DNA of 64,000 nucleotides from a candidate division TM6 bacterium UASB340 (GCA_001468925.1 LDIX01000005.1:2184-66183); one strand, 5' to 3'; shown: positions 46,943 to 51,579, numbered from the stretch's first letter. Numbers and translations: made by a program. The notes: a model not told the origin generated them from the sequence alone.

Positions 46943-49003
46943 ATGAAAAATAATAATGCAATTATTAAGAGTGTAATTATTACATTTTTTTTCCTTTTAC
47001 ATATGTTATCTGCAAATATTTTCAAAGATGGATTAGGTTGTGTTGAAGTAGATACTGTTAATGAGCTTGTTGAATATTTATCATTAAATGATCGAGCAAT
47101 TAAAAATTTGCGCTTTAAAAATATTTGCAAAAAAATCGATAATGGAGATGCAAAATTAGTGGCGCAAGCATTGAAAAAAAATATATCATTAGAAAGTTTG
47201 AGCTTTAGATTTGCAGGAATGGGTTTTAGGCAGGTACGTATAATAGCTGCAGCTTTGTTAGCTGATGGGAACAAAACGCTTAAAGAGATAGATCTTTCAG
47301 GTAATAAAGTTAGAATGGGTGGCGCAAAAATAATATCGGCTGTTTTAAAATCTAACAAAACTCTTGAAAAATTGATCTTGGACAATACTGATATTGGCGA
47401 TAAGGCTGCTTTATTATTGGTTGGGGCATTGAAAGAAAATACAATCATTGTAGATTTAAGTCTTAATAAAAATTTTATTCGGCCTGAAATTTTAAAAAAA
47501 ATAAATGAATATCTTGATCGAAATAGAAGAATTAATAAAAAAAGGGATATAATTTTAGAAAGTATTCGTAATGAAGAAATCATCTTATTTTTACCCAAAA
47601 GTTATAATTGTTGTAATGTTGGCCATATTGAGATTGATAATGTGAAATTGAAAATTAACAATTTTTTAACAGGACGCCGTTTGGGGTTTGGTTCCAAGGA
47701 AACGGAATTATTTTTTGAATTTTTAATAAATAATTATGGAAATGAAAAAATTTTAGAATATGAAATGAAATATAATAGTAATAAATTTAAAACCAAAAAA
47801 GAAATTAAAAAATGTGAAAAATATTGTGAATCAAAGAAAAAGGATTTTGAATTTATTGAAGAATTTATAGAATGGATAAATACAGGTAAGATTTGTGATG
47901 TTGTTATTAATGAACGAATATCAAATGTTCTGTGTGATTTTGGTGATTTGAATAAGGTAAATTTTAATAGTTTTGATTCTAGTGATATAAATTCAGATAG
48001 TTCAGATTCAGATTCAACAGAACCTACTGAAATTTCTTCAGAAAACAACTATGTAGATAAAGAAGAATTTGTATTTACTGAATCTTTTACAGATTTATTA
48101 GAAAAATTGTATCAGGATGAAGAAAGTAAAGATTTTAAAATTAAGCATTGGGATGGCGATATATTTGTACATTCATTTATTTTAGATTTGAAAACACGAC
48201 TATTTAAGGAATTTAAATCTGCGGCAAAAGGTGGATTTATTATCGATAATAAAAATACTATTTTGCCATATTGCGGTGATGCAAGTCTTGAGGCTTTGAA
48301 AATTCTCATAAAATTTTTATATATGGATAAAATTGAAATCGAAGAAGGACTTCCCGGAAAGATAAAAAAAAGATTATTGTTGGATTTGTGGGATTTAGGC
48401 AAATTTTTTATGTTGGAATCTGCATATTTTGAAGAATTAAATCGGTTAACTAATTGGAAAATGATATTTTTTTTTAATAAATATTATGCTGGTTTAGATA
48501 TAGTTGATGAGTTTGAATTTAATTGTAAAGAAGATTTTTCTTGTGTAAATAATGATGATAATATTAATGAATCTGATTGCAAAGATATATGTTCTACAGT
48601 AGGAGAATTTGATAAAAAATTAGAATATAAAAAATTAAAAAAGTTTATTAATGAATTTGAATTTAATTGTAAAGAAGATTTTTCTTGTGTAAATCATGAT
48701 GATGATATTAATGAACATGATTGCAAAGATATATGTTCTACAATAGAAGAATTTGATAAAAAATTAGAATATGAAAAATTAAAAAAGTTTATTAATGAAT
48801 TTGAATTTAATTGTAAAGAAGATTTTTCTTGTGTAAATAATGATGATGATATTAATGAACATGATTGCAAAGATATATGTTCTACAGTAGAAGAATTTGA
48901 TAAAAAATTAGAATATGAAAAATTAAATGATAAAAATATTTGGCAAAAATATTTTGATGAAGAGCGTGATGATGATGGTTGCGGTTGCTGTGAAATTTTT
49001 TAA
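46943..49003 (+). CDS. secreted RNI-type LRR protein with BTB-like domain, Cys-rich tandem repeats and CaaX-like C-terminus
   Basis: Signal-like N-terminus, then 28-aa LRRs of ribonuclease-inhibitor type (NKTLKEIDLSGNKVRMGGAKIISAVLKS...). The BTB-like segment is DFKIKHWDGDIFVHSFILDLKTRLFKEF...SLEALKILIKFLYMDKIEI. There are 3 copies of a 48-aa repeat, and the protein ends CGCCEIF. I chose the start at 46943 by homology with the ATGAAAAAT starts of the two downstream paralogues. Confidence 0.75.
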   Translation: MKNNNAIIKSVIITFFFLLHMLSANIFKDGLGCVEVDTVNELVEYLSLNDRAIKNLRFKNICKKIDNGDAKLVAQALKKNISLESLSFRFAGMGFRQVRIIAAALLADGNKTLKEIDLSGNKVRMGGAKIISAVLKSNKTLEKLILDNTDIGDKAALLLVGALKENTIIVDLSLNKNFIRPEILKKINEYLDRNRRINKKRDIILESIRNEEIILFLPKSYNCCNVGHIEIDNVKLKINNFLTGRRLGFGSKETELFFEFLINNYGNEKILEYEMKYNSNKFKTKKEIKKCEKYCESKKKDFEFIEEFIEWINTGKICDVVINERISNVLCDFGDLNKVNFNSFDSSDINSDSSDSDSTEPTEISSENNYVDKEEFVFTESFTDLLEKLYQDEESKDFKIKHWDGDIFVHSFILDLKTRLFKEFKSAAKGGFIIDNKNTILPYCGDASLEALKILIKFLYMDKIEIEEGLPGKIKKRLLLDLWDLGKFFMLESAYFEELNRLTNWKMIFFFNKYYAGLDIVDEFEFNCKEDFSCVNNDDNINESDCKDICSTVGEFDKKLEYKKLKKFINEFEFNCKEDFSCVNHDDDINEHDCKDICSTIEEFDKKLEYEKLKKFINEFEFNCKEDFSCVNNDDDINEHDCKDICSTVEEFDKKLEYEKLNDKNIWQKYFDEERDDDGCGCCEIF
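48509..48925 (+). repeat. 144-bp in-frame tandem repeat (2.9 copies) encoding EFEFNCKEDFSCVN(N/H)DD.INE.DCKDICST.(G/E)EFDKKLEY.KLKKFIN
   Basis: Copies start at 48509, 48653 and 48797. They are near-identical at the DNA level, and the few substitutions I see are mostly non-synonymous. Confidence 0.9.
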
Positions 49004-49120
49004 AAATAATGATTTTGTGGAGTGGTTATGAAAAATCTAAAAAAAATATTTTTAGTAATTGTTAATCTACTTTTTTCAATATCACTTTCTGCAAATAAAA
49101 TGTCCTTTGACGAAGCTATT
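48986..49120 (+). repeat. 135-bp junction repeat, copy 1 (CaaX end + intergenic + signal-peptide start)
   Basis: TGCTGTGAAATTTTTTAAAAATAATGATTTTGTGGAGTGGTTATGAAAAATC...GACGAAGCTATT is almost identical to 50578..50712. Confidence 0.85.
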
Positions 49121-50712: not shown

Positions 50713-51408
50713 GAAAGATTAAAAAATAATGATCCGAAGATGGTGCGATTAAGTATTTACAGCAATTATTTTATAGCTGAATATGTATACCAGATAGTCA
50801 AAGCTTTAAAAGTAAATAAAACACTTATAAATTTGGATCTTAGCTGGAATCACATTGGAGATGAAGTAGCAGGTGAATTAGCAAAAGCTTTAAAAGAAAA
50901 TAAAACGCTTGAAAAATTGCGACTTTCAGGGTCTTTTATTGGAGATGTTGCTGCAATCGAAATAGCAAAAGCTTTAAAAGAAAATAAAACACTTACAAGT
51001 TTGGATCTTGGCTTAAATCACATTGGAGATGACGGTGCAAAAGAATTTGCTGAAGCTTTAAAAGTGAATAAAACACTTACAGAATTGGATTTTTTTGAAA
51101 ATGATATTGGAACTGAGGGGGCACAGGCGATAGCTGATGCTTTAAAAATTAATAAATCTCTTACTGATTTAAATCTTGGATACAATAAAATTAAAGATCA
51201 AGGGGCACAAGCGATAGTTGATGCATTAAAAATAAATACTACTCTTATTCAGTTAAATCTTTATGACTATAAAATCCAAGACATATCAATTTTAGACAAA
51301 ATTGATTTTTATTTAACTCGAAATAAAAAAATCAAAAAAGCGTTGGATATAGTTGATGAGTTTGAATTCAATTGTAAAGAAGATTTTTCTTGTGTAAATA
51401 ATGACTAA
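50620..51408 (+). CDS. secreted RNI-type LRR protein, truncated by an in-frame TAA
   Basis: It has the same signal peptide as the previous gene and 28-aa LRRs (NKTLTSLDLGLNHIGDDGAKEFAEALKV...). It ends LDIVDEFEFNCKEDFSCVNND then TAA at 51406-51408, inside the motif that continues in the 46943 gene. Confidence 0.75.
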   Translation: MKNQKKIFLVIVNLLFSISLFANKMSFDEAIERLKNNDPKMVRLSIYSNYFIAEYVYQIVKALKVNKTLINLDLSWNHIGDEVAGELAKALKENKTLEKLRLSGSFIGDVAAIEIAKALKENKTLTSLDLGLNHIGDDGAKEFAEALKVNKTLTELDFFENDIGTEGAQAIADALKINKSLTDLNLGYNKIKDQGAQAIVDALKINTTLIQLNLYDYKIQDISILDKIDFYLTRNKKIKKALDIVDEFEFNCKEDFSCVNND

Positions 51409-51579
51409 AATATTTATGAGATTGAATTTAGAGATAGAGATCTGGATAAATTGGAAATTTATGGTAGTGAAGATGAAGAGCTTTCTGAGCAAAATTCTTT
51501 GAGTGATGAAAAATCTACAAAATCTAGCGATAAAAATTTACAGAATCGTGAAAAATCTTGTGTATGTGAAATGTTTTGA
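51409..51579 (+). pseudogene. in-frame continuation of the third LRR gene after the TAA, ending in CaaX-like CEMF
   Basis: 56 sense codons in the same frame read NIYEIEFRDRDLDKLEIYGSEDEELSEQNSLSDEKSTKSSDKNLQNREKSCVCEMF, then TGA at 51577-51579. Confidence 0.5.

Follow-up and report, generated by a model that had tools for sequence, protein, structure and literature searches.

The TM6 bacteria (Dependentiae) are known to encode leucine-rich repeat (LRR), ankyrin and F-box proteins together with a core type II secretion system (PMC4776705), and in Chromulinavorax signal peptides are present on 44% of all proteins and on 78% of the ankyrin proteins (PMC6561590). In Legionella, the AnkB and Pel effectors are prenylated by the host (PMC2916131, PMC13081727), and the CaaX box of AnkB has been lost by a frameshift in strain Paris (PMC5506055). 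The amoeba-associated Chlamydiae, in turn, possess tandem arrays of BTB-LRR and F-box effector families that follow birth-and-death evolution (PMC4209131).

Our study concerns three tandem LRR genes in a 64,000-nucleotide stretch of DNA (the window) from the candidate division TM6 bacterium UASB340 (GCA_001468925.1, LDIX01000005.1:2184-66183). The host genome is that of a Babeliales (Dependentiae) bacterium, an intracellular parasite of protists; the closest relatives of the DNA ligase gene beside the array are found in Babeliales/Dependentiae metagenome-assembled genomes (MAGs). With moderate confidence, we propose that the array is a lineage-specific, strain-variable island of this parasite, encoding Sec-exported host-interaction effectors, some of which would be prenylated by the host. 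It would then represent a clear but fairly ordinary case of a fast-evolving host-manipulation gene family.

Gene layout and repeat class of the array

ORF calling identified three consecutive, co-oriented paralogues on the plus strand (window positions 46943-51579): g1 (686 aa; 46943-49003, from an ATG, with a TTG at 46931), identical to database protein P0121; g2 (457 aa; 49028-50401, from an ATG, with a GTG at 49022); and g3 (262 aa; 50620-51408, its TAA at 51406-51408). The initial annotation had placed the end of the array at 51579, which is the stop of the ORF of the g3 tail and not that of g3 itself. The genes occupy a strain-variable island of 4.8 kb (46838-51660, plus strand, right edge approximate) between the stop of an ATP-dependent DNA ligase gene (46837) and that of a SOD gene on the minus strand (51675), in a window with a GC content of 27-29% throughout, array included. 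Chance is excluded as an origin of these features, given the length of the repeats and the presence of the family in other genomes.

The three proteins are built differently. In g1, a signal peptide (aa 1-24) precedes about five degenerate LRRs of the ribonuclease inhibitor (RI) type (aa 49-190), a middle module (aa 191-345), a Ser/Asp linker, a weakly BTB-like module (aa 374-521), four copies of the motif EFEFNCKEDFSCVNND and a C-terminal GCGCCEIF. In the g2 protein, a signal peptide is followed by RI-type LRRs, about 11 in number and 29 aa long (ALKxENCKLTxLxLxxNxIG), then by a degenerate form of the motif, EDFLDFDFNGSESGNN, and by 70 C-terminal residues that are unique to it. In g3, a signal peptide and six to seven RI-type LRRs of 28 aa lead directly to the motif LDIVDEFEFNCKEDFSCVNND and the TAA; its N-terminus and LRRs most resemble those of P0123. 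Three features had escaped the initial annotation: the distinct architecture of g1, which includes a middle and a weakly BTB-like module, the separation of g2 and g3 from their tails, and the CaaX box at the end of the tails.

We assign the LRRs to the RI/NLR class. Using the RI-type Pfam model LRR_6 (PF13516, gathering threshold 23.4 bits), all three genes scored above the threshold, with 151.9 bits (E 3.9e-46) for g2, 103.6 bits (E 1.2e-30) for g3 and a marginal 23.7 bits for g1, whose LRRs are few (about five) and degenerate. TRF gave a repeat period of 84 nt (28 aa) for g3 and of 87 nt (29 aa) for g2, in agreement with the manual repeat register; the period of 28 aa once given for all three genes is thus exact for g3 and g1 and one residue short for g2. 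A phmmer search of the PDB matched ribonuclease inhibitor (1.2e-32), NLRP3/14/5 (1e-14 to 1e-19) and RanGAP1 (2.6e-15), and the closest database proteins, at 38-50% identity, are Dependentiae LRR proteins with signal peptides and eukaryotic NLR LRRs; g2 and g3 are closest in sequence to the Dependentiae repeat proteins P0002, P0004, P0122 and P0123. The short bacterial-type LRR of YopM, IpaH and internalins (20-22 residues, with LPxLP or a related consensus) was considered and rejected, given the period of 28-29 residues and LRR_8 and LRR_4 matches that are secondary to LRR_6. Two claims made at the outset are therefore upheld: the repeats belong to the eukaryote-like RI/NLR class and not to the ordinary bacterial ones, and ORFs, LRR_6 matches and the n/h/c features of the N-termini agree on three consecutive plus-strand genes with Sec-type N-termini and RI-type LRRs.

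Very large databases yielded five genes of the family, and from these, in three genomes, we reconstructed its plan: a Sec signal peptide, an RI/NLR-class LRR solenoid of 28- or 29-residue repeats, optional middle and weakly BTB-like modules, a motif, an acidic linker and C-x-C-[EA]-[IM]-F-stop. The motif, acidic EFEF[ND]C[KR]EDF[SL]CVNND, is invariant across the family, other genomes included. The BTB-like module of g1 (48062-48505, plus strand) is conserved, being 50-55% identical to P0123 and P0143, and its likeness to BTB/POZ is weak: Pfam BTB (PF00651) gave 16.1 bits (E 0.013) on g1, short of the threshold of 20.5 bits, and no match at E <= 1 in P0123 and P0143. Against six PDB BTB domains, hhalign aligned just 26 columns (probability 18%, P 0.0013), located at the position of the BTB alpha3 'SxEAxxxLLxFxY'; a profile search of the PDB with the module returned no BTB match, and Foldseek found nothing at E < 1 with the low-confidence AF2 models (pLDDT 52.6 and 46.0). 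The module can therefore be called BTB-like only weakly, as neither the Pfam cut-off nor profile-profile comparison nor structure prediction backs the assignment.

Duplication, strain variation and the C-terminal tails

The 5' ends of g2 and g3 lie in a tract present twice on the plus strand: at 48986-49120 (end of the g1 tail with CCEIF and stop, spacer, g2 signal peptide and N-cap) and at 50578-50712 (end of the g2 tail remnant, spacer, g3 signal peptide and N-cap). The copies differ at five of 135 positions (96% identity), with identity of about 40% directly on both flanks, and the tract includes the final codons of the preceding tail, its stop and the 42-nt intergenic spacer; its first 31 codons contain only one synonymous and two non-synonymous changes. 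As the initial annotation had it, the signal peptide and 5' region of g2 and g3 are nearly identical, and the sharp edges of this 135-nt tract document what we read as recent conversion or duplication. Within g1, three tandem 144-nt (48-aa) repeats (48504-48935, plus strand), each with the conserved motif and a DCKDIC segment, are 91-96% identical. The mosaic of recent duplication and gene conversion proposed earlier is thus borne out by a sharp-edged tract of coding and non-coding DNA and by these internal repeats. As read from its sequence, the array was built and has been maintained by duplication in tandem, conversion of segments, expansion of internal repeats and loss of modules. The near-identical 63-nt block of g1 and g3 (48494-48556 versus 51343-51405) is real, with two mismatches (BLAST, 92% over 77 nt), but it is not by itself evidence of conversion because the motif that it encodes is invariant across the family; the likeness comes at least partly from purifying selection.

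The array qualifies as an accessory, strain-variable locus on the basis of its presence or absence between near-identical flanks. In L010 (GCA_018896115.1), whose flanks are 96-97% identical in nucleotides and 97-99% in amino acids, 16 bp stand in place of the island; this genome has a reciprocal island 7 kb away, with the divergent paralogue P0123 and two ankyrin genes, at the site corresponding to window positions 58666-58671, where the window is empty. In four Babeliales MAGs (L002-L005), SOD comes directly after the ligase gene and no LRR gene intervenes. L011 and L012 carry g2-like genes as tandem copies, and in L013 and L014, with flanks about 81-86% identical, a family gene abuts SOD. 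The array is therefore no conserved single-copy housekeeping locus, as the empty ligase-SOD junction in L002-L005 and L010 attests. The family gene at the same site in the more distant relatives L013 and L014 suggests that an ancestor already had such a gene and that it was later lost differentially.

Related tails do follow all three genes, as had been noticed from the start, but only that of g1 is in frame. It ends in ...GCGCCEIF-stop, with further Cys residues at -5 and -7 ahead of its CaaX box, CEIF (48989-49003 with the stop, plus strand); no other CaaX of the array is in frame. The g3 tail is an ORF of 56 codons (51409-51579, plus strand) that lies in frame behind the TAA at 51406-51408, ends in LQNREKSCVCEMF and a stop, and is cut off by that TAA from g3 together with its CaaX, CEMF (51565-51576, ...KSCVCEMF-stop); its nucleotide identity to the tail of the L013 gene, a gene that likewise abuts SOD and whose tail is intact, is 83.5%. 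The decayed g2 tail (50402-50595, plus strand) is out of frame with g2 and reads ...DLDKLEVYSSED, an internal TAA, EFSELEELIVEPVKYEKFCCEIF and a stop, so that its end (...KFCCEIF-stop) can be reached only via a frameshift and past the further stop inside; over 52 nt it is 86.5% identical to the g3 tail. The CCEIF-stop of this remnant lies inside the conversion tract and hence does not count as independent evidence.

The best-conserved part of the tail is its last 13 codons, and the conserved end CxC[EA][IM]F-stop is a putative CaaX prenylation box. Relatives end in SCGCEIF-stop (P0143) and ACGCAIF-stop (downstream of P0123, the L010 tail), and g1, the g3 tail, P0143 and the L010 tail all retain Cys at -4, Ile or Met at -2 and Phe at -1. 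A Cys four residues from the C-terminus with an aliphatic a2 is the pattern of host-prenylated bacterial effectors of the Legionella AnkB/Pel and Salmonella SifA/GtgE type. Among the ORFs of at least 100 aa in all DNA fetched, six of 222 have a Cys at -4, two of them family members. Glu at the a1 position of a CaaX box is unusual; Phe as X is accepted by GGTase-I and also by FTase. Our literature search found no paper joining Dependentiae and CaaX. The box has been severed repeatedly: g3 has a nonsense codon ahead of it, g2 a frameshift as well as further stops, and the gene of a relative a frameshift. Of the five genes in the family, a single one reads without interruption from its signal peptide through to the CaaX, which could mean that the box is dispensable or that the family is decaying. 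It is important to consider that the comparison genomes are all MAGs, in which some frameshifts could be assembly errors; the truncation of P0123, however, recurs in two assemblies.

These interruptions bear on the explanation that competes best with a functional effector array, namely that the array is mostly genomic debris, decaying duplicated fragments of one ancestral gene in which g2, g3 and even g1 are functionless. The nonsense end of g3, the several lesions in the g2 tail, the degenerate LRRs of g1, the interrupted family genes of L010 and L013 and a conspecific strain without the array all fit such decay, and beside the single L013 gene the three window genes look like its parts spread over three ORFs, g1 having the middle and BTB-like modules, g2 the 29-aa LRRs and g3 the tail that matches best. 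However, at 27% GC a stop would be expected about every 12 codons, and the ORFs run to 686, 457 and 262 codons, each ORF retaining its start codon, an undamaged signal peptide and LRRs in regular series; moreover, motif and C-terminal box are conserved across genomes, and the conversion tract keeps the 5' ends of g2 and g3 homogenised. We consider debris an unlikely account.

Predicted export and proposed function

The N-termini of g1-g3 are predicted Sec (type I) signal peptides, with two to three Lys, a hydrophobic core of 11-14 residues and an S/F-A-N site (putative cleavage at SLSA|N, SLFA|N or MLSA|N). Their Kyte-Doolittle 11-mer maxima, a heuristic measure, are 2.5-2.7, compared with 1.0-1.6 in cytoplasmic controls. 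We infer that the three proteins are secreted and act as effectors. A Sec signal alone takes a protein to the periplasm only, and no type III or type IV system is known in the Dependentiae; for these reasons, the access of the array proteins to the cytosolic prenyltransferases of the host is hypothetical, and a delivery route to the host cytosol would have to be the type II system, vesicles or lysis.

The same evidence leaves some room, though less than for debris, for periplasmic or cell-surface proteins of the bacterium itself (adhesins, invasins for host uptake or envelope binders), in which case the acidic, Cys-rich tails would have a part in surface anchoring or in the chemistry of disulfides or metals, and none in host prenylation. 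The C-terminal Phe of the tails also fits outer-membrane targeting signals, of which such a residue is typical, and neighbouring repeat proteins of relatives have acidic, Cys-rich, non-CaaX ends (...DCDCGD-stop, ...DCDCCDYGD-stop). Sec is the only export signal visible, and the phylum has no known specialised apparatus for injection (PMC4776705, PMC6561590). On the other hand, bacterial surface LRR adhesins use short LRR classes and the array the RI/NLR class; the spacing Cys(-4), aliphatic(-2), Phe(-1), stop is exact in four divergent tails, which are acidic and poor in hydrophobic residues, unlike a beta-signal; and domain searches of the array proteins found no LPXTG motif, autotransporter domain or lipobox. 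A recent acquisition from the eukaryotic host (NLR- or RanGAP-like genes), in place of an old bacterial family diversifying on the spot, is very improbable, for although octocoral and Capsaspora NLR LRRs score as high as bacterial matches and the island is missing from the conspecific strain, island GC and skew match the rest of the window, the signal peptides of the genes are bacterial, all of the closest relatives with the full architecture belong to the Dependentiae, a more distant relative has a family gene at the same site, and our ORF survey found no introns or mobile-element genes in the island.

Under the effector reading that we favour, g1-g3 would be exported by Sec and then leave the cell via the type II system or in vesicles, a route that has been proposed for further repeat proteins of the Dependentiae, and the LRR horseshoe would bind a host protein. 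The terminal CaaX of g1 would be prenylated by host farnesyl- or geranylgeranyl-transferase, and the neighbouring cysteines may be palmitoylated; the lipid anchor would tether g1 to a host membrane, as in the Legionella AnkB and Pel effectors. The g2 and g3 proteins may be untethered variants or on their way to loss. A fuller, speculative scenario, which we think improbable as a whole, joins these steps: Dependentiae with no known injection apparatus would deliver Sec-exported LRR proteins to the host cytosol, where CxC[EA][IM]F would be prenylated and the neighbouring Cys palmitoylated by host enzymes, with an anchor repeatedly mutated off and the BTB-like module perhaps serving as a Cullin-3 adaptor. 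If it were true, switching by nonsense and frameshift mutations would yield soluble and membrane-tethered variants within one species, and g1 would be a functional analogue of Legionella AnkB (repeats, ubiquitin-ligase adaptor, lipid anchor) made from other parts.

Comparison with known systems

The array shares with the LRRs of eukaryotic ribonuclease inhibitor, NLRs and RanGAP the length of 28-29 residues and the consensus LxxLxLxxNxIGxxGAxxIAxALKxN, and these are its best matches among solved structures; it differs in lacking NACHT, PYD, CARD and RanGAP catalytic parts, in its bacterial signal peptides and in repeats that are uniform (28 or 29 residues) where those of RI alternate between 28 and 29. 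The repeat proteins of Babela, Chromulinavorax and TM6 MAGs (ankyrin, LRR, F-box, WD40) come from the same phylum and have Sec signals as well (PMC4776705, PMC6561590); they too are multi-copy, variable between genomes and presumed to act in host manipulation. The Dependentiae literature stresses ankyrin proteins, whereas the present family has RI-class LRRs, middle and C-terminal modules of its own, an invariant motif and a CaaX-type end, for which modules, motif and end we found no earlier description.

Protochlamydia PEX1 (BTB and LRR) and the Neochlamydia F-box/LRR expansions are likewise LRR proteins of amoeba symbionts in tandem arrays (PMC4209131), with birth-and-death evolution and large copy-number differences between close relatives, although our family, with five genes, is tiny beside them. 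PEX1 may share with g1 the pairing of LRRs and a BTB domain, but its BTB domain is N-terminal and above the Pfam cut-off (PMC4209131), the weakly BTB-like module of g1 is C-terminal to the LRRs, and PEX1 has type III secretion signals in place of Sec signals. Membership in the PEX1 BTB-LRR family was accordingly rejected, the order here being signal peptide, LRRs and BTB-like module, and in PEX1 an N-terminal BTB followed by LRRs.

The Legionella CaaX effectors (AnkB, PelA-K) have no shown sequence homology to the array, and they travel through the Dot/Icm type IV system with no Sec signal, whereas the array proteins have a Sec signal and no known injection system. Unlike the Legionella boxes, that of the array is CE[IM]F or CAIF, with Phe as X and an extra upstream Cys, and its prenylation is hypothetical. 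What g1 has in common with these effectors is a eukaryote-like interaction domain joined to a C-terminal CaaX in a bacterium of amoeba or protist hosts, and the array as a whole resembles AnkB of strain Paris in the allelic loss of the box by frameshift.

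The tandem LRR genes and the site they occupy

Three consecutive plus-strand genes, which we call g1, g2 and g3, occupy positions 46943-51579 between an ATP-dependent DNA ligase of the archaeal/eukaryotic three-domain type (607 aa, 45014-46837, plus strand; Pfam DNA_ligase_A_N/M/C) and an Fe/Mn superoxide dismutase (SOD; 51675-52388, minus strand). Their ORFs comprise 686 aa (g1, 46943-49003 from an ATG, with a TTG upstream at 46931), 457 aa (g2, 49028-50401) and 262 aa (g3, 50620-51408). The RI-type Pfam model LRR_6 matches all of them, with E-values of 3.9e-46 for g2 and 1.2e-30 for g3, and with just 23.7 bits for g1, where the cut-off is 23.4. 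Tandem Repeats Finder gives a period of 87 nt in g2 (9.6 copies) and of 84 nt in g3; in register, these repeats read LTxLxLxxNxIGxxGAxAIAEALKxENCK (29 aa) and LTxLDLxxNxIGDxGAxxxAxALKxNKT (28 aa), respectively. When g2 was searched against all PDB chains with phmmer, the top match was ribonuclease inhibitor (1.2e-32), followed by NLRP3/14/5, RanGAP1 and axonemal LRR proteins. The PDB matches, the repeat length and the LRR_6 assignment together place these LRRs in the eukaryote-typical RI/NLR class and not in the short bacterial class, in agreement with the initial annotation. Its proposal of Sec signals also agrees with our analysis: each N-terminus combines two or three lysines and a hydrophobic core with an S/F-A-N site, features missing from the cytoplasmic neighbours (ligase and OMP decarboxylase), from which we infer signal peptides on g1, g2 and g3. 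The minus-strand ORFs at 46927-47598, 49000-49389 and 49783-50151 were discarded as shadow ORFs overlapping the LRR genes. Promoter and terminator scans gave fewer matches than in shuffled sequence, with no terminator.

The window ligase matches those of Babeliales/Dependentiae metagenome-assembled genomes (MAGs) at 51-69% identity, and four of these MAGs present the order SecD, ligase, SOD (minus), OMP decarboxylase (minus) and HldE, with no gene in the ligase-SOD gap. A far closer genome, GCA_018896115.1 (contig JAHIMZ010000005.1; locus L010), was reached via P0123, a database homologue of g1. The window between 46.5 and 64 kb is collinear with it, most of this length showing 96-97% nucleotide identity and the part across 54.8-58.7 kb about 90%; of the five flanking proteins compared, a ligase fragment, SOD, OMP decarboxylase and HldE are 97-99% identical, and the PALP enzyme 92%. 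In L010, 16 bp separate the ligase and SOD stops, where the window has 4.8 kb (46838 to about 51660); with the empty gap in the MAGs, this means that the LRR genes are not conserved single-copy loci. Reciprocally, L010 carries a strain-variable 4.6-kb insert (L010:9999-14580) with the LRR gene of P0123 and two tandem ankyrin genes, and the window holds just a 24-bp spacer at that site (58666-58671). At both sites the adjoining genes are transcribed convergently. Nucleotide identity between the two strains' family genes is only 65-69%, so this is not a simple translocation; old paralogues have been differentially retained or exchanged. The island contains no transposase or integrase ORF, and a 37-nt target-site duplication around it was rejected, the BLAST overlap at the junction being A/T-rich similarity only. 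The signal peptides of the two L010 ankyrin genes are almost the same (MNNIKKIIIVTATTANFVFSCFAGE / MNSIKK...), and both genes end in an acidic, Cys-rich stretch (...GEGDCDCGD-stop and ...RGDCDCCDYGD-stop).

In two metagenome contigs with flanks about 81-86% identical (L013 and L014), a family gene directly adjoins SOD, as in the window, and over its last 109 nt the L013 tail matches the g3 tail at 83.5% identity, the level of the orthologous flanks. For these two reasons, the ligase-SOD site was probably occupied ancestrally and emptied in the lineage of L010. Elsewhere in the L010 genome, g2-like LRR genes with signal peptides stand as a tandem pair (L011:10001-12883, L011:4317-5696 and L012:4122-6886). 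These genes end in acidic/aromatic residues (...DDYGDFGEEI, ...DDYGDFGVEV and ...NDFACFDF, each before the stop), and the recurrence of such C-termini on exported repeat proteins of the clade may reflect a shared C-terminal signal. At the level of sequence, these comparisons show an accessory, strain-variable island with three paralogous RI-class LRR genes.

Many further ORFs in the window begin with signal-like segments, matching reports for Chromulinavorax. The SOD has a strongly hydrophobic signal-like N-terminus (MKKFIILFLIIIIFLTKINFA) and is, for this reason, probably exported. Three plus-strand ORFs of 355, 454 and 624 aa (40193-42649 and 34660-36534) also have signal-like N-termini; Pfam gives no significant match for them, and they are candidates for further lineage-specific exported proteins. 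A small GIY-YIG-type ORF (114 aa, 37998-38342, plus strand) has a copy at L013:3102-3458 that is 71.6% identical in nucleotides but is located elsewhere, between OMP decarboxylase and HldE, pointing to a small gene that is mobile.

Modular organization and probable sequence exchange in the family

Outside its LRRs, g1 contains a middle module (aa 191-345), a weakly BTB-like conserved module (aa 374-521) and four copies of the motif [DE]EFEF[ND]C[KR]EDF[SL]CVNND, which is invariant or nearly so in proteins otherwise 44-55% identical (48494-48935 and 51343-51405 in the window; P0123; and P0143, the protein from L013). The motif places two cysteines six residues apart, and its EDFSCV segment, with an acidic F-x-x-V core, resembles the ATG8-interaction (LIR) motif. 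An exhaustive HMMER search with full-length g1 was dominated by LRR matches, and the non-LRR part matched only P0143 and a further database protein, P0122. A profile of the conserved module plus motif retrieved only P0143 among 5.8 billion proteins and a single metagenome contig, identical to L013, and had no match among viral contigs. In the very large databases searched, the relatives of g1 outside the LRRs are only P0122/P0123, P0143 and the same gene in L014, a very small family.

Its members are laid out as follows. In g1, degenerate LRRs are followed by the middle module, the conserved module, the motif copies and GCGCCEIF-stop. P0123 has a signal peptide, g3-like 28-aa LRRs, both modules, YEFNCKEDFSCVNND and a further 12 residues. 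In the L013 gene, g2-like 29-aa LRRs are followed by the middle module, a stop or frameshift (L013:650-760), the conserved module, EFEFDCREDFLCVNND, an acidic linker and LQNREKSCGCEIF before the stop; the second part of this split gene, P0143, starts at an ATG of its own and lacks a signal peptide. In g3 and g2, which have neither module, the LRRs run straight into the motif, whose g2 copy is degenerate, and then the tail. Aligned in this way, the same C-terminal parts appear paired with differing LRR cassettes.

The near-identity of the signal peptide and 5' region of g2 and g3 reported in the initial annotation is confirmed as a tract (48986-49120 versus 50578-50712) of 96% identity, with 5 mismatches in 135 nt, while identity directly on either side is about 40%. 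This tract includes the CCEIF-stop codons of the preceding tail, a 24-nt spacer, the signal peptide and the N-terminal cap; because its borders are sharp and it extends over non-coding DNA as well as synonymous sites, recent conversion or segmental duplication explains it better than selective conservation does. The 63-nt block shared by g1 and g3 (48494-48556 versus 51343-51405) was likewise recovered, with 2 mismatches. Inside g1, in addition, a 144-nt unit occurs in three tandem copies (48504-48935) with 91-96% identity to each other. As read from these alignments, modules of the array have been shuffled, internal repeats have expanded and one tract records recent conversion.

C-terminal tails and the CaaX-type box

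It had been noted that all three genes are followed by related tails; the tails are indeed related, but only that of g1 is in frame. Thus, g3 stops at a TAA (51406-51408), after which the same frame is open for 56 codons and ends in LQNREKSCVCEMF and a stop at 51579. The g2 tail (50402-50595) is frame-shifted and has one more stop inside, and its end still reads ...KFCCEIF-stop. Given these multiple lesions in g2, restoration of the tails by programmed readthrough or frameshifting was rejected as the main reading. Downstream of the P0123 stop, L010 still encodes DSKEDLSELEPYDIPIKHEKACGCAIF and a stop in another frame; the truncated protein is identical in two assemblies, and a random assembly error is therefore unlikely. 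The C-terminus of g2 itself (...NKRYKF) was considered as a di-lysine ER-retention motif and does not match KKxx or KxKxx.

Four divergent tails all end in C-x-C-[EA]-[IM]-F-stop (C-G-C-C-E-I-F in g1), so that position -4 is Cys, -2 aliphatic and -1 Phe. This order of residues is the CaaX arrangement recognised by eukaryotic prenyltransferases, and the extra upstream cysteines resemble those of dually lipidated proteins. Between the g3 and L013 tails, the last 13 codons are the best conserved (3 differences in 42 nt). Among the 222 ORFs of at least 100 aa in the fetched DNA, Cys at -4 is rare (6 ORFs, two of which are family members). A 228-aa minus-strand ORF (31387-32073), with a signal-like N-terminus, the end ...SNCYCLKN and no Pfam family, has Cys at -4 and -6, but its Lys at a2 excludes a canonical CaaX. 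The family tails thus show a conserved C-terminal box that has been repeatedly truncated. A rival reading is that the array is decaying debris.

Proposed function and known systems

The proteins of g1, g2 and g3 would be exported by Sec and released, their LRRs would bind host proteins, and g1 would be prenylated by the host. Three points weaken the case for prenylation: the box is in frame only in g1, the g2 copy falls within the conversion tract, and a Sec-exported protein would still need to enter the host cytosol, for which the only routes suggested in the literature are the conserved type II system and vesicles (PMC4776705, PMC6561590). The products could alternatively be envelope or surface proteins. 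A recent eukaryote-to-bacterium transfer is disfavoured, since the base composition of the array matches that of the window (GC 21-33%, mostly 25-30%), the genes have putative bacterial signal peptides and the same site is occupied in a more distant relative.

Dependentiae are widespread and almost uncultured protist parasites. The locus offers a compact, comparable case of effector-type gene turnover inside one species, with two reciprocal islands in otherwise collinear genomes that are 96-97% identical, and raises the testable hypothesis that a conserved C-terminal box on a Sec-exported protein is prenylated by the host. If this is true, lipid-anchor mimicry would reach beyond T3SS and T4SS pathogens, and an unrecognised route from periplasm to host cytosol would be implied; if it is false, the locus adds another case to the birth-and-death evolution already familiar for eukaryote-like repeat proteins of bacteria associated with amoebae.

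In Dependentiae, LRR, ankyrin and F-box proteins of eukaryote-like type are already known (PMC4776705, PMC6561590), and tandem arrays of such families have been described as evolving by birth and death in amoeba-associated bacteria (PMC4209131); the locus is a well-resolved further case of the known Dependentiae repeat-protein families. Two features could prove to be new biology: the conserved CaaX-type end of a protein with a Sec signal, and the invariant EFEFNCKEDFSCVNND motif. Host prenylation is established for the Legionella effectors AnkB and Pel (PMC2916131, PMC13081727), and a frameshift is known to have removed the AnkB box (PMC5506055); we found no paper in the searchable literature that links CaaX with Dependentiae.

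We regard the BTB assignment of the g1 conserved module as a lead and not a result. Pfam BTB matches g1 with E = 0.013 and 16.1 bits, under the cut-off of 20.5, and does not match P0123 or P0143; a three-sequence profile of the module retrieved no BTB chain from the PDB. In an hhalign comparison with six genuine BTB domains, taken from PDB alignments with a consensus-like bait, the probability was 18% (P = 0.0013) over 26 columns, at the expected alpha3 position. Two AF2 models of the module, built from three sequences only, reached pLDDT values of 52.6 and 46.0, and Foldseek on the module's AF2 model gave nothing under E = 1. If the assignment is true, the pairing of LRR and BTB would recall PEX1 of Protochlamydia, in which, compared with g1, the domain order is reversed and the export signal is different (PMC4209131).
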